Origin: Chloroflexota bacterium
GTDB taxonomy: Bacteria; Chloroflexota; UBA11872
Reading direction: 5' to 3'
Length of the DNA stretch: 64,000 nucleotides
NCBI GenBank assembly: GCA_022825895.1
Contig: JAJDVX010000042.1
Span: 6,525 to 70,524, forward strand
Part shown: piece after piece, positions 2,082 to 56,190 of the stretch
Position numbering within the stretch: position 1 is the first letter of the stretch
Layout: every line of letters starts with the position of its first letter
Made by a program: the position numbers and the translations under genes
The notes under the pieces: model-generated
The model's database searches: none
What the model was told of the DNA's origin: nothing
The model's input: the letters and a program-made list of their open reading frames with translations, nothing else

Positions 2082-3278
2082 GTGAATACCCGAGCGTGCG
2101 ACCTGCTGGTGGTTGGAGGCGGTCCGGCGGGGTCGGCCGCGGCGATTGCGGCACGGCGGGCTGCGCCGGAGCTCGAGACGGTGGTGCTGGACCGGCAGCG
2201 GTTTCCGCGGGACAAGGCCTGCGGGGACGGATTGGGCCCCGGGGTCGTAGCGCGGCTGTCGGACCTTAACGCCACTGAGATTGTGCGGGGTCGTCGGCCA
2301 GTCGAACGGCTGAAGATCGTGGCGCCGTCGGGGGCCGAGGTGGTGGGCGACCTGCCGGCGATTGGGAAAGCGGCGCGGGGTTACGTGGTGCCGCGGGCGG
2401 AGTTCGATGACGCCCTGCTGACGCGCGCTCGAGAGGCGGGCGCGGACGTATGGACCGAAAGCCGGCTCGAAGGATTGGCCTCGCCCGGCGGTGGGTCGGT
2501 TCGAGTCGAGGCGAGCGGGCCCAACGGACTGGTTACCGTCAGTGCGAGGGCCGTGATCGCGGCCGATGGGGCGCGGTCGGACGTGCGGCGGTTGCTTGGA
2601 GTGCCTTATAACGACTCGGCGCATACCGGGGTGGCGATCCGGGCGTACGTGGAGCGGCCCGGCGGATTCGATCACATGACGTTCTACTTCAAGCGCGAGT
2701 TGCTGCCGGCGTATGGCTGGGTGTTCCCGATCGACGCGCGGGGCGCGAACGTGGGGGTGATGATCGACGCCGCTCGCTTCCGGCGGCAGGAGCGGAGCTT
2801 GCCGGAACTGCTAAGCGATTTCCTGCGATCCAGCGGGCACGTCAGCCTGGAACCCGAGCGGTCGCGGGCCTACATGCTGCCCTTCGCCAGCTACGTGCCG
2901 CCGCTGGTGCAGGGCCGGGTGGCGCTGGTGGGCGACGCCGGGTCGATGATCAACCCGTTTTCGGGCGAGGGCATTGCCTACGGCATGGCGGCGGGCATCG
3001 AGGCGGCTCGGCGGGCAGTGCGGGCGGTGCGGGCGGGAGCGGACGACCGGCCGTTCGATGGATTCGATGCGTGGTTTCGGGAGCGATTTGGCGAGCACTT
3101 TCGGGCATCGGCGCGAGCCAAGCGGCTGGCGCAGCGGGCCTGGATTGCGGACTTTGGGGTGCGGGCGGCGCGGCGACGGCCGGAGTTCGTGCGGGAAGGC
3201 ATCGAACTGCTGGTGGGCGAGGGCACGGCGCTGTCGTGGCGGAGCCTGGCGCGGTTGCTGCTGCACGGGCGCGGCTAG
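2082..3278 (+). CDS. FAD-dependent oxidoreductase, geranylgeranyl reductase family
   Basis: 398 aa. GTG start. LLVVGGGPAGSAAA Rossmann dinucleotide-binding motif, DRQRFPRDKACGDGL, GDAGSMINPFSGEGI. Confidence 0.75.
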   Translation: MNTRACDLLVVGGGPAGSAAAIAARRAAPELETVVLDRQRFPRDKACGDGLGPGVVARLSDLNATEIVRGRRPVERLKIVAPSGAEVVGDLPAIGKAARGYVVPRAEFDDALLTRAREAGADVWTESRLEGLASPGGGSVRVEASGPNGLVTVSARAVIAADGARSDVRRLLGVPYNDSAHTGVAIRAYVERPGGFDHMTFYFKRELLPAYGWVFPIDARGANVGVMIDAARFRRQERSLPELLSDFLRSSGHVSLEPERSRAYMLPFASYVPPLVQGRVALVGDAGSMINPFSGEGIAYGMAAGIEAARRAVRAVRAGADDRPFDGFDAWFRERFGEHFRASARAKRLAQRAWIADFGVRAARRRPEFVREGIELLVGEGTALSWRSLARLLLHGRG

Positions 3279-3315
3279 CTCATCGCTGCCGACGCTCCGC
3301 GCTAACGGGACGATG

Positions 3316-3801
3316 TCAGGCTTGCCTGGAGGTTGTTTCGTCCTCGCCGTTCGAGGTAACGACGGGTGATACGTCACCGGTACCGGGCGACGCATCGGTT
3401 GCCGCGGCTGTCTCGCCGGCTTCGGCGACCGGTTCTTCCGATTGAGCAGCAGCTCGAGCTTTCGGGGTCGGCGCGGCCGTTGGGGATTCCGCGTGCTCGC
3501 CGCGCAGGCGGTCGCCGATTTCGGTGAGCGTGGCGTCCACTCGCTTGACGACCTGCTGCGTGCGCTCGTGCCGGAGGGCGTCGTCCACGCGCTCCATGGC
3601 CTTGTCGCCAATCGCCATCATTTCGCCGCGGACTCGGCGGGCCTCTTCACTCTCCAGTCCGGCTTCGACTCGCGACTTGGCTTGCGCCAGGCGCACACGG
3701 ACCTTCTCCCCGCGTTCGCCGCCGACTTCGTCGCCGACCCGCTTGATCAGGCCGTCGATGCGACGGCCCCACCCCTTGTTGTCCTGGTCCTCTGCGCTCA
3801 C
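3316..3801 (-). CDS. Hypothetical charged/coiled-coil protein
   Basis: 161-aa ORF rich in E/R/K with a plausible start. No recognisable domain. Confidence 0.45.
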   Translation of the reverse strand: MSAEDQDNKGWGRRIDGLIKRVGDEVGGERGEKVRVRLAQAKSRVEAGLESEEARRVRGEMMAIGDKAMERVDDALRHERTQQVVKRVDATLTEIGDRLRGEHAESPTAAPTPKARAAAQSEEPVAEAGETAAATDASPGTGDVSPVVTSNGEDETTSRQA

Positions 3802-41408: not shown

Positions 41409-42176
41409 ATGCCCATCCTCGAACGATTCCGCCTCAACGGCCGTCGCGCCTTCGTCACCGGCGCCAGCCGCGGCATCGGGCGGGCCATCGGCCTGGCGCT
41501 GGCCGAGGCCGGGGCCAACGTCGCGCTGGCCGCCCGGGACGAGTCGCGGCTCACCGAACTCGCCGCCGAGGTCGAGGCTCTCGGCCGGAAGGCAGTTGTC
41601 GTTCCGCTGGACCTGGGCAACCTCGAAGCCATTGGACCCGCCATCGACGCCGCCGCCGATGCGCTCGGTGGGTTGGACATCCTGGTCAACAACGCCGGCG
41701 TCACCTATCGCGGCGGGTTCGGAATCGACGACCCGGCCGAGTTCGACCGCATGTTCGACGTCAACCTCGGCGCCGTGCTTTTCGGCTGCCAGGCGGCGCG
41801 CCCGCACCTGGCGGCGGCCGGCGGAGGCGTGATCGTCAACATCGGATCCATCGCCGGAACCAAGGGCGCCGGCCTCTACGGGGCAAGCAAGCAGGGGGTA
41901 CACGCGCTGACCAGGGGGTTCAGCCGTGAGTACGCCAACGACGGCATCCGCGTCGTGGCCCTGGCGCCCGGGCAGGTCCACACCGACATGACCGCCCGCG
42001 TGCGGGCGAATCCGACCGAGTTGAACACCATGCTGCATCACACGGCGCAGCGGCGGGTTGCCGACCCGGCGGAAATCGCCGCGGCCGTCGTCTACCTGGC
42101 CTCGCCCGCGGCCGACTTCATAACAGGCACGACCATCGCCATCGACGGCGGCCGCGACTTCTTCGCCAGGCGATGA
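41409..42176 (+). CDS. SDR family oxidoreductase
   Basis: 255 aa. TGASRGIGRA glycine motif, NNAG, YGASK catalytic motif. Confidence 0.85.
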   Translation: MPILERFRLNGRRAFVTGASRGIGRAIGLALAEAGANVALAARDESRLTELAAEVEALGRKAVVVPLDLGNLEAIGPAIDAAADALGGLDILVNNAGVTYRGGFGIDDPAEFDRMFDVNLGAVLFGCQAARPHLAAAGGGVIVNIGSIAGTKGAGLYGASKQGVHALTRGFSREYANDGIRVVALAPGQVHTDMTARVRANPTELNTMLHHTAQRRVADPAEIAAAVVYLASPAADFITGTTIAIDGGRDFFARR

Positions 42177-42928
42177 CCGCCCCCGATCCCTTCAGCCTCG
42201 ACGGTCGCCGAGCCCTCGTAACCGGCGCCAGCCGCGGCATCGGACGCGGCATCGCCGAGGCGTACGCGCGGGCCGGCGCGCGCCTTGCCCTGGCCGCGCG
42301 CACAACCGCAGGTCTGTCGGAGGTCGCGGTCTCAGTCGCTCAATGCGGCGCCGAGGTCCACACGTTCGCCGCCGACCTGGAGGACGCCGAGGCTCCGACC
42401 CGGCTGGTCAAGCGCGCCGCCGAGGCCCTGGGCGGCCTGGACATCGTGGTCAACAACGCAGGCGACGGCGGCCACGACGGACTGACACTCGAGGGCTATC
42501 GCCGGCTCCTGCACCTGAACCTCCGCGCCCCCGTGCTGATTGCCCAGGCCGCACGGCCGTATCTGCTCGAGTCCCAGGCCCCGGTGGTCATCAACGTCTC
42601 GTCGGTCTCGGCCAGGCTGGGCGGCGCAGAGCCCTACGGCCCGCTCAAGGCCGCGGTGTCGTCCTACACCGTCGGGCTGGCGCGTGAGTGGGGCAAGGAC
42701 GGCATCCGCGTGGTCGCCATCGCGCCCGGCGTGATCGAAACCGACATGACCGCCGGCTATACCGATGCCGATTGGTGGACCGGGAACCTGGCCGAGCGCG
42801 TGGCCCTGGGTCGCAACGGGCAGGTCGACGACATTGCCGGTGTTGCCCGCTTCCTCGCGTCCGACGCCGCCGCCTACATCACCGGCGCCGTCATCCCCGT
42901 CGACGGCGGCTGGGTGCACCAATTCTAG
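42173..42928 (+). CDS. SDR family oxidoreductase
   Basis: 251 aa. TGASRGIGRG, NNAG, Y..LK catalytic motif. Overlaps the upstream stop. Confidence 0.85.
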   Translation: MTAPDPFSLDGRRALVTGASRGIGRGIAEAYARAGARLALAARTTAGLSEVAVSVAQCGAEVHTFAADLEDAEAPTRLVKRAAEALGGLDIVVNNAGDGGHDGLTLEGYRRLLHLNLRAPVLIAQAARPYLLESQAPVVINVSSVSARLGGAEPYGPLKAAVSSYTVGLAREWGKDGIRVVAIAPGVIETDMTAGYTDADWWTGNLAERVALGRNGQVDDIAGVARFLASDAAAYITGAVIPVDGGWVHQF

Positions 42929-44844: not shown

Positions 44845-45138
44845 GTGTCCATTGATCGTTCCCAGGTCGACCACGCCGCCGACCTCGCGCGTCTCGAACT
44901 ATCCGACGACGAGCGCGAGAGGCTGCGGGGCGAACTGGGGCAAATCCTCCAGGCCTTCGAGGCGCTGAACACGCTGGACACCAAGCACATTCCCCCCACC
45001 GCCCAGGTCATCCCCCTGGGCAACGTCGAGCGCGACGACCGCGTTGCCGACTCGCTCCCGCTCGACGCCGTGCTCCACAACGCACCGCGCGTCGAGGACG
45101 GCCAGATCCGCGTGCCTCCGGTCCTGGACGAGTCCTGA
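44845..45138 (+). CDS. gatC: Asp-tRNA(Asn)/Glu-tRNA(Gln) amidotransferase subunit C
   Basis: 97 aa. GTG start. [16 protein letters not shown]...L...I...L..LD typical GatC. Confidence 0.9.
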
Positions 45139-45142
45139 ATCA

Positions 45143-46615
45143 GTGCCCGACCAGCTCCACCGCCTCACCCTTCACGCGGCCTCGGACGGCCTGCGCTCGG
45201 GGCAGTTCAGTTCGGTCGAACTCACCCAATCCCTGCTCGATCGCATCCAGGCCGTGGACGGCCGCATCGGCGCCTACCTCACCGTTACGCCTGACATCGC
45301 ATTGGAACAGGCCTCCGCAGCCGACCAGCGTCTCGCGGCGGGCGACAACTGCCCGCTCCTCGGTCTGCCCATCGCCCTTAAGGACGTACTCACCACCGCC
45401 GGCGTCGAAACCACCTGCGCCTCCCGCATCCTGCAGGGCTTCATCCCGCCCTATGACGCCACTGCCGTCACCCGCTTGAAGCGGGCCGGCGCCGTCACGC
45501 TCGGCAAGACCAACATGGACGAGTTCGCCATGGGCTCCTCCAACGAGCACTCCGCCTACAAGCCCGTGCGCAACCCCTGGGACCTGGACAAGGTGCCCGG
45601 CGGCTCCAGCGGCGGCTCCGCGGCCGCCGTGGCCGCCGACGAGTGCCTGGCCGCCCTGGGATCGGACACCGGCGGCTCGGTCCGACAACCCGCCGCCCTC
45701 TGCGGCTGCGTAGGCCTCAAGCCCACCTACGGCCGCATCTCGCGCTTCGGCCTTATTGCCTTTGCCTCCTCGCTGGACCAGATCGGCGTGCTCACCAAGG
45801 ACGTCACCGACGCCGCTCTCCTGCTGGGCGCCCTGGCCGGCCACGATCCGCGCGATTCCACGTCCGCTGAGGAGCCTGTGCCCGACTACGCCGGCGAGCT
45901 GAATCGGGATATCGGCGGCCTGCGCATAGGCGTGGCGCCCGAGTACTTCGGCGAGGGCCTCGACCCACAGGTCGGAGACTCCGTCCGCGCGGCTATCAAC
46001 GACCTGCGAGACCTCGGGGCCACCGAGCGCGAAGTCTCGCTGCCCCACACCGAGTACGCCCTGCCCACCTACTACGTCATCGCCCCGTCCGAGGCCAGCG
46101 CCAACCTGGCCCGCTACAACGGCGTCAAGTACGGCCTCTCCGACCCCCAGGCCACCGACGTCGACGAGATGATGGCCCGCATCCGCGGCCGGGGCTTCGG
46201 ATCCGAAGTCAAGCGCCGCATCATGATCGGCACCTTCGCCCTCTCCTCCGGCTACTACGACGCCTACTACGTCCGCGCCCAGAAAGTCCGCACCCTCATC
46301 AAGTCCGACTTCGAAACTGCCTTCCGGGATGTGGACGTCATCGCCGCCCCCGTCGTCCCCGCGCCCGCGTTCGACCTGGGCGCCAAGCTCGACGACCCCG
46401 TGGCCATGTACCAGTCCGACATTATGACCCTCCCCGCCTCGCTGGCCGGCCTGCCCTGCCTGAGCATCCCCTGCGGATTCGTGGACGGCCTGCCGGTCGG
46501 CCTGCAGCTCATCGCCCCGCCCTTCGCCGAGTCCCGCCTCCTCCAAACCGCCCGCGCCTACGAACGCGACCGCGGCCCCCTCCCCACCCCCACCAAAGCC
46601 ATCGACTCCCAATGA
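45143..46615 (+). CDS. gatA: Glu-tRNA(Gln) amidotransferase subunit A
   Basis: GTG start 5 nt after the gatC stop. Amidase signature [13 protein letters not shown], catalytic K/S/S context. Confidence 0.9.
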
Positions 46616-46732
46616 CCACCGTGTATCACGTCCCCTCTCTCCCCGGAAAGCACGCCTTCTCTTCCCCTCTCCTGAGACCGTTACGTAATTCGAGGGACGG
46701 CTGCGCGGTAGCAAACCTGTTGCGGGGGCGCC

Positions 46733-46852
46733 ATTCTTCCCCTCTCCAAGGGGAGAGGCAGATTCGGGCGTCTTCGGCCGAAATCGGTGAGGGGTCTTCC
46801 GGGCAACCAGGCCTGGGTTGCGCAAAGGTCTCTCAGGAGACCTTTGAACAGC
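46733..46852. repeat. Repeat copy A (divergent) of a MITE-like element family
   Basis: Shares ggtgaggggtcttccgggcaacca..cctgggttgcgcaaaggtctctc and the gagacctttgaacagc tail with copies B-D. Confidence 0.6.
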
Positions 46853-46875
46853 GTCCCGCGTCCCCCAAGCCGCGT

Positions 46876-46958
46876 CCGCTCTTCCTCCCTCTCCCCGTGG
46901 GAGTGGGTTGGGGTGTGGGTCTTCCGGGCACCCAACCCAGGGTTCCGCGAAGCTCTTT
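46876..46958. repeat. Repeat copy B of the MITE-like element (gatA-gatB spacer)
   Basis: ccgctcttcctccctctccccgtgggagtgggttggggtgtgggtcttccgggcacccaacccagggttccgcgaag. It contains a CCCTCTCCC/GGGAGnGGG inverted repeat. Confidence 0.7.
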
Positions 46959-47032
46959 TCTAGCGGAAGGCGGAGCCTTCCTTGAGCTTGTCGAAGGGCC
47001 ACTCAAAGCAGTCGAAAGCCCCTCTTAAACCC

Positions 47033-48646
47033 ATGCCTACCGCCTACCGCACCGTCATCGGTCTGGAAACCCACGTCCAACTCCGCACCCGCAGCAAGAT
47101 GTTCTGCGGCTGCGCCGCCGACTACGCCAACGCCCGGCCCAACACCCACGTCTGCCCCGTCTGCCTGGGCATGCCCGGCGTCCTGCCCGTCATCAACCGC
47201 GAAGCCGTGGACCACACCATCCGCACCGGCCTGGCCCTCAACTGCGAGATTCCCGAATACGCCAAGTTCGACCGCAAGAACTACGCCTATCCCGACCTGA
47301 TGAAGTGGTACCAGATTTCCCAGTACGACCTCCCGCTCTGCATCGACGGCCACTTCGACGTCGAGGTGAACGGCGCAACCACCCGCGTTGGCATCACCCG
47401 CGTCCACCTGGAAGAGGACACCGCCCGCCTGACCCACGTAACCTCCGCCGACGGCGCCCCGGCCAGCCTGATCGACGTCAATCGCTCCGGCGCGCCGCTC
47501 ATGGAAATCGTCTCCGAGCCGGACATCCAGACGCCCGTCGAAGCCATGGCCTACGGCGAGAAGCTGCGCGCCCTGCTTCGCTGGATCGGCGTTTCTACCG
47601 CCAATATGGAGGACGGCGCCCTGCGCATCGACGCCAACATCTCAGTCTGGCCCCAGGGCGAACCGATCGGCGACGTCAAGGTCGAAGTCAAGAACATGAA
47701 CTCCTTCCGGTCGCTGGGCCGCGCCCTGGCCTTCGAAATCGAGCGCCAGACCGCCCGGCGCGAGCGCGGCGAACCGATCGAGCAGGAAACCCGCGGCTGG
47801 GACGAGACTTCAGGCACAACCCGCTCCCAGCGAACCAAGGAATACGCCCACGACTATCGCTACTTCCCCGAACCCGACCTGCCGCCCCTACACGTCACAC
47901 GTCAACGCGTCGACACCCTTCGCGCCGCCCTCCCCCGCATGCCCGACCAGGTCGCCGCCGACCTGCTCCAACAAGGCGCCCCCGAGGCCGACATCGCCGA
48001 ACTCGTCCAGGACCGTCCCCTCACCGACTACACCCTCGCCGTCATCGAAGCTGGCGCTTCCGCCGGCGAGGCCGTCACCTGGATCGTCCACGAACTCCGC
48101 CGCGCCCTCAACGCCCACACCGCCACCCGCCGTTCCCGCGAAAGCGGGAGCCCATCCGCTCTTCCTCCCTCTCCTGGGGGAGAGGGTTGGGGTGAGGGGT
48201 CTTCCGAGCAACCAACGCTCGGGTTAGGCAAAGGCCTCCAGGAAGGAAAGGACGGGAGTCAGGGTCGGCCGCCCCCCAACCGCCCAAGCGCAGGAACCAT
48301 CATCCCCATCCCTCCAGCTGAAATCGCCTCGCTCCTAGAATTCCGCGCCCAGGGCGCCGTCAGCAGCACCATGGCCGGCGAAGTCCTCGACGAAATGTTC
48401 GCCACCGGCAAGTCAGCACGGGCCATCGTGGAGGCCCGCGGCCCCCAGATCAGCGGCCAGGACGAACTCCTCGCCATCGCCCGCCAGGTCATTGAAGAGA
48501 ATCCCCAGGCCGTCCAGGACTACCGCGACGGCAAGGGCCGCGCCATCCAGTACCTCATGGGCCAGGTCATGCGCATCACCCGCGGCAAAGCCAACCCGGG
48601 CGCCGTAAGCGCGCTCATCCGTACCGAACTCGACGGCGCCAAATAA
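47033..48646 (+). CDS. gatB: Asp-tRNA(Asn)/Glu-tRNA(Gln) amidotransferase subunit B, with a ~55-aa repeat-derived in-frame insertion
   Basis: Internal ATG ([17 protein letters not shown]). GatB catalytic core and C-terminal YqeY-like tail. An extra segment in the linker before the tail is encoded by repeat copy C. Confidence 0.88.
48156..48238. repeat. Repeat copy C of the MITE-like element, located inside the gatB reading frame
   Basis: ccgctcttcctccctctcctgggggagagggttggggtgaggggtcttccgagcaaccaacgctcgggttaggcaaaggcctc. More than 85% identical to copies B and D. Read in frame as ...[33 protein letters not shown]... Confidence 0.75.
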
Positions 48647-48698
48647 TCGCTGCAGGCCCTCGCCTTGGCGGCCAGGATCGAGCCTGCGCTCCCGCACC

Positions 48699-48823
48699 AG
48701 AGACCTTTGCAGAACAGCCCCGCGCCCTCGAAAGTGGGGCCTCTCTTGCTCCCTCTCCCCGTGGGAGAGGGCTGGGGTGAGGGTCTTCCGCGCAACCAAC
48801 CCTGGGTTACGCAACGGTCTCTC
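48699..48823. repeat. Repeat copy D of the MITE-like element (downstream of gatB)
   Basis: agagacctttgcagaacagcc...gcctctcttgctccctctccccgtgggagagggctggggtgagggtcttccgcgcaaccaaccctgggttacgcaacggtctctc. Confidence 0.7.
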
Positions 48824-48904
48824 ACCAAGGGCTGTCGCGCCGAGCGCCTGCGAGCGACCTGGTCTAAAATAGACCAATCTAAACCTCCCACAGGAGCATC
48901 CGCG

Positions 48905-49183
48905 ATGGAGCACACCACATCGCAACGCACCTGGACCGTCGCCGAGGCCAAGGCCAAGCTGTCCGAGGTCCTGCGGCTCGCCGAGGAAGAAGGGCCCCAA
49001 CGCATCGGCCTGCGCCGGCCCTTCGTTGTCGTGCCCGAAGCGCTTTGGGACGCCAGGCAAGCGCGCGACAGGCACTTGGGCCGGTGGCTGCTTGAAAACG
49101 TGCCAAGGGGCCTGAACTGGGAAGTCCCCCGTGACCGGCGATCCGATAGGGCGGTTCCCTTTTCGGAAGAAGACGAACGGTGA
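48905..49183 (+). CDS. Type II antitoxin, Phd/YefM-like (VapB partner)
   Basis: Internal ATG with AGGAG 8 nt upstream. MEHTTSQRTWTVAEAKAKLSEVLRLAEEEGPQRI... Stop overlaps the vapC GTG start. Confidence 0.7.
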   Translation: MEHTTSQRTWTVAEAKAKLSEVLRLAEEEGPQRIGLRRPFVVVPEALWDARQARDRHLGRWLLENVPRGLNWEVPRDRRSDRAVPFSEEDER

Positions 49184-49599
49184 CGGGGTTTCTCCTGGAC
49201 ACGAACGTCATTTCCGAATTGACCAGGGACGAACCCGATTCGCGAGTGGTCCGGTTTCTCGACGACGAAGGCGACTTATGGCTGTCGTCCGTCGTCGTGT
49301 ACGAGATGGAATATGGCCTTGCGACCCTTCCCCAGGGGCGCCGCGCGGCAAGGTTGCGCGCTTTGCAAGCGAATATCCTCGCCGCCTTTGCAGGCCGGCT
49401 CCTGTCCTTGGATCAATCCGGCGCCCGCTGGTCAGCCGAGCTCCGAGCGCAGGCACGCCACGTCGGGCGGACCATCGACGTCGGTGACGCCCTCATCGCC
49501 GGCACTGCCAGAGCGCACGGCCTGGCCCTCGCCACCCGCAACATCCGCGACTTCCAGGGAATGGACATCCACCTCGTCAACCCCTGGGACTACCCATAA
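49180..49599 (+). CDS. vapC: Type II toxin VapC (PIN domain ribonuclease)
   Basis: 139 aa. GTG start. LLDTNVISEL...D...acidic PIN residues...ATRNIRDF. Confidence 0.85.
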   Translation: MTGFLLDTNVISELTRDEPDSRVVRFLDDEGDLWLSSVVVYEMEYGLATLPQGRRAARLRALQANILAAFAGRLLSLDQSGARWSAELRAQARHVGRTIDVGDALIAGTARAHGLALATRNIRDFQGMDIHLVNPWDYP

Positions 49600-49966
49600 C
49601 GGTCTTCGCCCACGCGCACTCCCAGAACGCCGCCACCCGCCCTTCGTCCGCGCCCCCCGTTCGTGGTCAGCCTGTCCTGAGCTTGTCGAAGCGGACGGGC
49701 CAGAGTCTTCGGCGGCCCGTGTCGAACCACAAAGGCCCAGCATCCAACCCTCCCAGACAGTCCCCTCCGTCATTCCGGAGGCTTCACCCGGAGTCCAGGG
49801 CCCTCAACCTGCAACCTGTGCCTCGGCGCCCGTCAGACGTCCGAGCGAACTAGTTAGACCATTCCTGGTACCGCGCCATTCCGCCCCGCGTATCGCTCCA
49901 CGCTCCAACGCCTTCCTCCGACCAGCCCACGTATCATGCCCGCGCCAACAGTGAGGGCGGATCACG

Positions 49967-56041: not shown

Positions 56042-56078
56042 TACCCCCGCCCTATACCCGCCGCGGGGCGACGGGGTG

Positions 56079-56190
56079 GACACATTCGGCGCAAAACTGA
56101 ACACATTCGCCGGAAAACTGAACACATTGGGCGCAAAACTGAACACATTCGCCAGAAAACTGAACACTTCGCACGATTCCGCTGAACAGG
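56079..56190 (+). repeat. Tandem direct repeat, 21-bp unit (g[c/g]aaaactgaacacattcgcc), about 4.5 copies
   Basis: gacacattcggc|gcaaaactgaacacattcgcc|ggaaaactgaacacattgggc|gcaaaactgaacacattcgcc|agaaaactgaacacttcgcac|gattccgctgaaca. Begins 38 nt after the dprA stop. Confidence 0.85.

Follow-up and report, generated by a model that had tools for sequence, protein, structure and literature searches.

An in-frame copy of a hairpin-rich repeat inside gatB of an uncultured Chloroflexota bacterium, probably tolerated as a disordered loop

Small palindromic repeats that lie in frame within housekeeping genes have been documented for the Rickettsia palindromic elements and for several transposable elements of the miniature inverted-repeat type (MITEs) (PMC10969869), and other intragenic cases involve ERIC, BOX, Coxiella QMITE1, and the MITEs of Anabaena (PMC10969869, PMC3184786, PMC5896051). 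Here, we analyzed a 64-kb stretch of DNA from an uncultured Chloroflexota bacterium (contig JAJDVX010000042.1; the whole stretch is hereafter called the window), in which one copy of a dispersed repeat is found in frame inside gatB. The Rickettsia elements are about 100 to 150 bp long, rich in palindromes, and dispersed; their copies interrupt unrelated housekeeping genes without breaking the frame, and the extra peptide is translated at places that the protein fold can accommodate (PMC10969869). The gatB copy likewise keeps the frame of a conserved protein and occupies a site that the structure permits. The repeat described here differs from them in having clear terminal inverted repeats and two structural subtypes, and while dozens of in-frame cases are known in Rickettsia, a single one, in a Pfam-recognizable gene, is established here. 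The hosts belong to different phyla, and the likeness is one of analogy only, with no sequence relationship expected. By this analogy, the gatB case seems to work like the Rickettsia elements, unrelated in host and sequence, and provides a clear new example of a phenomenon that is itself known. An earlier note on this DNA, made from the letters alone, had called a repeat kept in frame in an essential translation gene unusual; given these precedents, this holds in a relative sense only. Small repeats that colonize essential genes in frame, best known from obligate intracellular Rickettsia, would with this case also be on record for uncultured Chloroflexota with a free-living habit. We consider it probable that the insertion is a selfish repeat which gatB tolerates and which is translated as a disordered loop.

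Three further systems resemble the repeat in part. Like bacterial MITEs, it is small, occurs in multiple non-autonomous copies, and has terminal inverted repeats (GAGACCNTTGC...GCAANGGTCTC), a ATGACCACCG duplication at a second insertion between gatA and gatB, and copies that often stand in tandem or between operon genes. Unlike in them, the left terminal repeat is missing from the gatB copy, a clean target duplication could not be defined there, and no parent insertion sequence or transposase was seen in the window or the related loci. Sequences of the repetitive extragenic palindromic (REP) type are single palindromes of 20 to 40 nt linked to REP-associated tyrosine transposases. As in the REP sequences and bacterial interspersed mosaic elements of enterobacteria, GC-rich hairpins lie between operon genes, co-transcribed and often clustered, but the unit is here about 122 nt long and has three hairpins and terminal inverted repeats. 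Finally, whalefall-1 (RF01762) is a candidate noncoding RNA known only from metagenomes and proposed to be free-standing (PMC2864571). An extra-hairpin subtype of the repeat matches the full 56-position model with both stems and the GGUGAGG tail; however, the scores are 21 to 30 bits against a gathering score of 37, and the gatB copy lacks the second hairpin.

The window has the gene order gatC-gatA-gatB, which was identical in all related loci (Table 1). The gatB gene is a single continuous open frame of 537 aa, about 53 aa longer than its closest insert-free orthologues (483 to 486 aa), in line with the 50 to 60 extra residues that the earlier note had estimated. Pfam GatB_N (PF02934) matched residues 7 to 293 with 368 bits and GatB_Yqey (PF02637) matched residues 424 to 533 with 113 bits, both above threshold; the latter match covered profile positions 38 to 148 only, which indicates that the domain is split by extra sequence. 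GatB chains in the PDB were matched at E=1e-124. Among the alleles that carry the insert (hereafter filled alleles, as opposed to empty ones), mean pairwise differences at codon positions 1, 2, and 3 of the gatB body were 0.064, 0.034, and 0.229. The gatB body is under strong purifying selection, and the gene is therefore functional; indirectly, such selection also fits a GatB that is essential and single-copy in a genome without GlnRS or AsnRS. The extra sequence is one of four copies (A to D) of the repeat found in the window, namely copy C, in frame, as had been proposed for positions 48146 to 48300; the peptide quoted in the earlier note was correct and these coordinates were close, with DNA alignment giving about 48128 to 48286.

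Table 1. Features of the gat operon and of the repeat in the window and in related loci (positions refer to the window unless a locus is named)
Feature	Position	Strand	Evidence and remarks
gatC	44845-45138	+	Pfam GatC, E=5e-18
gatA	45140-46615	+	Pfam Amidase, E=8e-157; stop overlaps ancestral gatB start (ATGA at 46612)
Bridging open reading frame (ORF), 138 aa	46612-47028	+	Starts at the ancestral gatB ATG; runs through copies A and B; ends 4 nt before the present gatB ATG; no Pfam match
Repeat copy A, extra-hairpin subtype	46700-46838	+	nhmmer E=3e-26; right terminal inverted repeat 46817-46832; resemblance to Rfam whalefall-1 at 46738-46796
Repeat copy B, head-to-tail with A	46838-46972	+	nhmmer E=1.5e-33; left terminal inverted repeat 46837-46852
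gatB, 537 aa, intact, under purifying selection	47033-48646	+	Open frame, Pfam, codon-position variability, fold match
Repeat copy C, inside gatB	48117-48250	+	nhmmer E=1.4e-31; family alignment; fold; right terminal-repeat remnant
In-frame insert, 159 nt (53 codons), GatB residues 366-418	48128-48286	+	DNA and protein alignment to empty-site orthologues; AlphaFold
Repeat copy D, complete 122-nt element, 54 nt after gatB stop	48700-48821	+	nhmmer E=5e-36 (match 48701-48834); terminal inverted repeats 48700-48715 and 48806-48821; fold z=-3.0
Loci with a bridging ORF	Window 46612-47033; L081 3712-4001; L083 3757-4001; L085 3663-4004; L091 3738-4004
whalefall-1-like stretches	Window 46738-46796; L085 3798-3856; L099 8867-8928; L098 8995-9053; L095 2214-2272		Rfam, all below 37 bits

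According to the reading we favor, a MITE-like, hairpin-rich repeat of about 122 nt would have inserted in a surface loop of the GatB helical domain in the ancestor of a group of uncultured Chloroflexota. The copy would have arrived without its left terminal repeat and with about 40 nt of extra 3' DNA; as its frame is stop-free and its length is a multiple of three, it would be translated as a disordered loop of about 53 residues. The enzyme would stay functional, with the insert tolerated and not needed, and the insert would evolve under weak amino-acid constraint and shrink by in-frame deletions. Homologous recombination among related lineages would have spread filled and empty alleles across backgrounds, and the same family would have invaded the gatA/gatB junction, where the survivors would keep continuous translation through a bridging ORF to a new gatB start. 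The mechanism of insertion and the neutrality of the insert are what we infer from the observations below.

When aligned to Thermotoga maritima GatB, the upstream flank of the insert ended at residue 362 and the downstream flank resumed at 371; in Staphylococcus aureus GatB, where the upstream flank reached residue 355, the corresponding gap is at about 355 to 364. The latter protein consists of a cradle (1 to 294), a helical domain (295 to 407), an inter-domain loop (408 to 411), and a tail (412 to 475), and residues 293 to 363, 364 to 381, and 382 to 475 have been used as its rigid bodies (PMC2811023); the insert site adjoins the 363/364 rigid-body break. In an AlphaFold model (predicted template modeling score, 0.76), a helix at 344 to 371 was followed by coil at 372 to 427 with a predicted local distance difference test (pLDDT) score of about 30 to 35, flanked by segments at pLDDT 86 to 98. 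Three helices assigned to the helical domain (428 to 439, 445 to 458, and 462 to 469) came after the insert, and then four tail helices. The model matched the solved GatB structure 3al0_B with TM scores of 0.74/0.81, and the cradle, helical, and tail domains are predicted to still fold despite the insert. The three helices after the insert, together with the alignments to S. aureus and T. maritima, place the predicted disordered loop inside the helical domain, at a hinge, about 45 to 50 residues before the linker between the helical domain and the tail. The disordered loop that the earlier note had proposed to look for was thus borne out by the model, but its placement between the helical domain and the YqeY-like tail was not.

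Copy C belongs to a family of repeats. An nhmmer profile built from the local copies gave exactly four matches in the window at E<=10, all on the plus strand and within 2.2 kb of each other around gatB. The E-values of these four are inflated and circular, since the model was built from the same copies, and independent support for the family comes from its occurrence in other contigs and from the terminal-repeat motif. When 28 copies were aligned, drawn from the window, from orthologous loci, and from metagenome contigs unrelated to these, they defined a unit of about 122 nt with (G)AGACCnTTGCAnAAC at its start and the inverse, GCAAnGGTCTC, at its end; in other contigs, many copies have AGACCnTTGC at the start and GGTCTC at the end. 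The motif GAGACCNTTGCANAAC had five matches in the window against 0.21 expected; both terminal inverted repeats are present in copy D, and the right one alone in copy C. The unit has three hairpins, of which the central one (CCCTCTCC-loop-GGAGAGGG) is nearly invariant. In copy C, hairpins lie at 48132 to 48151, 48167 to 48186 (the CCCTCTCC/GGAGAGGG hairpin), and 48203 to 48223, followed by a remnant of the right terminal repeat at 48223 to 48238 with two mismatches. The exact core pattern was found in 19 contigs of two metagenome assemblies, with 36 profile matches there; these copies were often in tandem or at contig ends. A dispersed, multi-copy unit of this length with terminal inverted repeats would, as judged from its sequence, be a MITE-like element.

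When a profile of the translated copies was searched against 5.8 billion proteins, only short orphan ORFs (26 to 77 aa, no Pfam domain) from many phyla were recovered; this search missed even the GatB alleles, and its outcome is thus no measure of how often the repeat lies in frame in real proteins. The peptide LPLPxGEGWGEG, the translation of the central hairpin, occurred in hundreds of short orphan "hypothetical proteins" (P0130 to P0249) from many phyla, with hosts such as Alysiella, Blastocatellia, Geomonas, Pseudomonas, and enterobacteria, which suggests that related hairpin repeats are widespread and that ORFs are spuriously called on them just as widely. Around the metagenome copies, just two stop-free frames carried Pfam domains: a type ISP restriction enzyme with the copy upstream of the domains (L096) and a FAD_binding_4 protein with the copy in its C-terminal part (L103). 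The gene limits are uncertain in both, and we make no claim that either copy is in frame.

The insertion proved to be lineage-specific when aligned with orthologues, as the earlier note had anticipated. The closest GatB proteins comprised seven filled ones (516 to 538 aa) and many empty ones (483 to 486 aa) at 81 to 83% identity. The loop region measured 26 aa in 75 of the 86 Chloroflexota GatB proteins, down to about 50% identity, whereas filled alleles have 61 to 83 aa there and a distinct group of 498-aa proteins has 38 aa; the empty site is therefore ancestral. Among representatives in the genome collection, where the species of the window itself is absent, the three closest had no repeat insert, with L001 and L002 being empty and L003 carrying a short 12-aa version. 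Filled alleles came from at least six separate samples, as short-read scaffolds and long-read contigs, and with six further intact ones among cluster members (P0122 and P0125 to P0129), at least 13 intact insert-bearing alleles from independent assemblies were counted. Two database alleles (P0032/L087 and P0123) were frameshifted in or near the insert. We considered whether P0032/L087 is a real pseudogene and rejected this in favor of read errors, since the gene lies on a 7x long-read contig on which the gatC and gatA calls are also truncated. At the same site, the 498-aa group (P0028 to P0031 and L003 at 2106 to 3581, 78% identity) has a different extra loop of 12 residues. This loop may be a decayed remnant; its peptide bears a weak resemblance (G.G.S..AL..P) to the 5' part of the insert, with no convincing DNA match.

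The distribution of the two states among related loci was patchy. Loci of 10 kb fell into four clusters with about 84 to 86% identity between clusters, and both states were present in each. When the 5' 1067 nt of gatB were compared, a close or closest relative of every filled allele was an empty one (L081 and L002, 94.5% identity; L082 and L001, 93.9%; L084 and L090, 93.9%; L083 and L088/L089, 93%). Filled and empty alleles differed from each other more than alleles within a class only within about 90 to 100 nt on either side of the insert, where the filled-versus-empty identity in flanks of about 100 nt was 83.7% against 89% within classes upstream, and 78.9% against 83% downstream. L084 and L090, which come from one sample, formed a mosaic of blocks with 100% and about 90% identity. 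Within the insert, the extra loop segment, the hairpin-loop type, and the 3'-end type occurred in all four pairwise combinations, which points to recombination inside the insert. The simplest reading of these sequences is that a single old insertion gave rise to filled and empty alleles which homologous recombination then reshuffled and so distributed patchily, and ectopic conversion from other copies of the family may have contributed to the history of the alleles.

Several independent insertions at a hot spot, or several precise excisions, could produce a similar pattern without such recombination. The family has hit this operon repeatedly, with three positions occupied in the window and variably occupied in relatives; furthermore, the filled alleles differ in internal structure, and the empty allele L002 has an upstream flank of the filled type. 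However, all filled alleles share their junctions and a 3' segment that does not belong to the family (GGTCGGCCG...), and it is only beside the insert that they are closer to each other than to empty alleles. The empty sites have exactly the ancestral length, with residues similar to those of distant outgroups, and the combinations of insert features noted above speak for recombination. We therefore regard multiple events as quite unlikely; assembly chimerism, too, has a small residual probability as a source of the pattern.

Within filled alleles, the insert has evolved differently from the rest of the gene, with mean pairwise differences of 0.183, 0.111, and 0.234 at codon positions 1, 2, and 3. 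It was open in frame in all intact alleles. The plus strand of the insert is stop-free in one of three frames, namely the frame in use, and survival in frame is accordingly about a one-in-three coincidence and not a rare event. In-frame deletions have shortened the insert: L082 lacks one internal segment, L083 to L086 lack the whole second module, and the loop of the first hairpin varies in length by 18 to 24 nt among filled alleles. The constant part, 11 residues followed by (W/R)GEG, corresponds to the central hairpin, and is equally constant in non-coding copies.

Several points weigh against a neutral, selfish insertion reshuffled by recombination. Copy C has no left terminal repeat, about 40 nt at the 3' end of the insert (48239 to 48286) have no match to the family, and a clean target-site duplication could not be defined from the DNA alignment at the internal gatB site; these features fall short of demonstrating a classical transposition. 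Across all filled alleles, the first hairpin has hardly changed, a possible sign that the nucleic acid is constrained and not purely neutral. The mosaic of L084, a 4x long-read contig, and L090 could partly stem from cross-talk during assembly or polishing, and selection might be why at least four lineages still have both alleles. Translation of the loop and activity of the enzyme are, moreover, what we infer from sequence.

Constraint at the level of RNA is the basis of a further explanation, in which hairpins in and around gatB would tune the stability or processing of the gatCAB mRNA, or the speed of ribosomes, in the manner of REP sequences, with the coding effect a by-product. Consistent with this, all four copies in the window and all copies in orthologous gat loci are in the direction of transcription, and copies D and A folded more stably than shuffled sequences (z=-3.0 and -2.7), but copies C and B did not do so significantly (z=-1.9 and -1.1). 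The hairpin stems are nearly invariant across the 28 aligned copies, which also favors this explanation; such invariance, however, leaves pair counts uninformative and gives no evidence of covariation. The extra-hairpin subtype (copy A, L085, L095, L098, and L099) matched whalefall-1 with 21.2 to 29.8 bits (copy A, 26.2 bits), yet every score was below the gathering score. Copies in metagenome contigs were on both strands of the records, irrespective of the direction of genes, and sister strains without copies showed no other visible change in the operon. Taken together, we give an RNA-level role little probability. The resemblance also suggests that whalefall-1 may be a module of a mobile repeat instead of a free-standing noncoding RNA.

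Alternatively, the loop could have been co-opted: at the hinge of the helical domain that faces the tRNA, it might modulate tRNA binding or discrimination, or transamidosome assembly, with selection keeping both alleles. The insert is intact in at least 13 alleles across lineages about 15% apart in DNA, filled and empty alleles occur together in at least four lineages, and the site adjoins the S. aureus rigid-body break described above. The core of 11 residues and (W/R)GEG is kept in all filled alleles; however, it is encoded by a DNA hairpin that is near-invariant in non-coding copies too, and its conservation need not be at the protein level. The insert is three times as variable at codon positions 1 and 2 as the gatB body, half of the insert is deleted in most alleles, the empty alleles of sister strains are evidently viable, and no structure was predicted for the loop (pLDDT about 30). 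Co-option thus appears less plausible still. That the insert is an artefact, with a repeat copy wrongly joined into gatB or a true sequence frameshifted, is highly improbable: repeats do break these assemblies, many copies of the family lie at contig ends, and two database alleles are frameshifted, but the same in-frame site recurs in diverged sequences from independent assemblies of at least six samples and two technologies, the frameshifts of L087, a 7x contig with truncated gatC and gatA calls, look like read errors, and the number of intact filled alleles in independent short- and long-read assemblies speaks against assembly error.

Other candidates were rejected. An intein would have residues for splicing where it meets the host protein on either side, and a Hint domain of some 130 aa or more; the insert has 53 aa, is of low complexity, predicted to be disordered, and without Pfam domain, and is a translated DNA repeat. 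Translational bypass or excision from the RNA was dismissed since the insert leaves the frame open in every intact allele and, again, consists of a translated repeat.

A second insertion of the family lies at the gatA/gatB junction. Where the locus is empty, gatA stop and gatB start share the overlap ATGA. The window, L081, L083, L085, and L091 have 244 to 421 nt of repeat DNA directly behind the opening codons of the old gatB, and all five loci have a stop-free ORF of 79 to 138 aa that runs from the old ATG through the whole insert and ends 4 nt before the new gatB ATG or overlaps it. The frame of the bridging ORF in the window has no stops, compared to four in each of the other frames, and 2.7% of shuffled sequences were open; over the five loci, the other two frames had one to four stops each and 3 to 14% of shuffles were open, and as these loci are not independent, such stop and shuffle statistics are only indicative. 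The open frame in five of five loci suggests that translational coupling has been preserved across the junction insert by selection. The insertion is bordered on both sides by about 10 nt of directly duplicated sequence (ATGACCACCG; window 46612 to 46621 and 47033 to 47042), which the window shares with the junctions of L081, L085, and L091. This resembles a target-site duplication, and the start codon that gatB uses today comes from the downstream copy. To the right of copy B, at 46975 to 47025, a second conserved module (…CTTGAGCTTGTCGAAGGGCCACTCAAAGCAGTCGAAAGCCCCTC…, translated as a peptide of 14 residues) was noted, which was also seen in the junction inserts of L081, L083, and L085 and resembles a different sort of repeat attached to the first one.

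A bolder view is that the repeat family is adapted to being translated and survives in the gat operon only where ribosomes keep moving, with the gatB polymorphism perhaps selected and whalefall-1 a module of a mobile element; we consider this unlikely, if conceivable. Were it true genome-wide, such repeats would be "translation-compatible" colonizers of tightly coupled operons and coding regions in Chloroflexota, and the filled/empty polymorphism of gatB could be held by selection and not by drift. Under the tolerated-insertion reading we prefer, the locus would offer a natural experiment, with close strains that have or lack a disordered loop of 31 to 55 residues at the hinge of the tRNA-binding helical domain of GatB. 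The successive stages of in-frame decay would show how well this site tolerates extra sequence and how new disordered loops enter conserved enzymes, and the junction insertion would show how translational coupling in an operon can survive invasion by repeats. The repeats also carry a warning for annotation, as they yield longer orthologues, orphan ORFs (such as the bridging ORFs of 79 to 138 aa), and frameshifted calls in metagenome assemblies.

Some observations concern the surroundings of the operon. The region directly 3' of gatB (48647 to 49600) differed among the relatives L081 to L091. In the window, it contains a pair of genes at 48905 to 49599, one Phd/YefM-like (28.5 bits, just under threshold) and one for a PIN toxin, and in other loci, glutamate dehydrogenase, McrBC, or Fic/RhuM with DUF433 was found downstream of gatB. 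Upstream, at 41409 to 42757, the repeat finder detected two adjacent paralogous segments with a spacing of 764 nt and blocks that are 73 to 89% identical; these may be tandem dehydrogenase genes, since in orthologous loci the gat operon is preceded by a gene for a short-chain dehydrogenase. The repeat finder also reported a tandem array of four 21-nt units (TGAACACATTCGCCGGAAAAC-like) at 56077 to 56181, which is unrelated to the gatB repeats.

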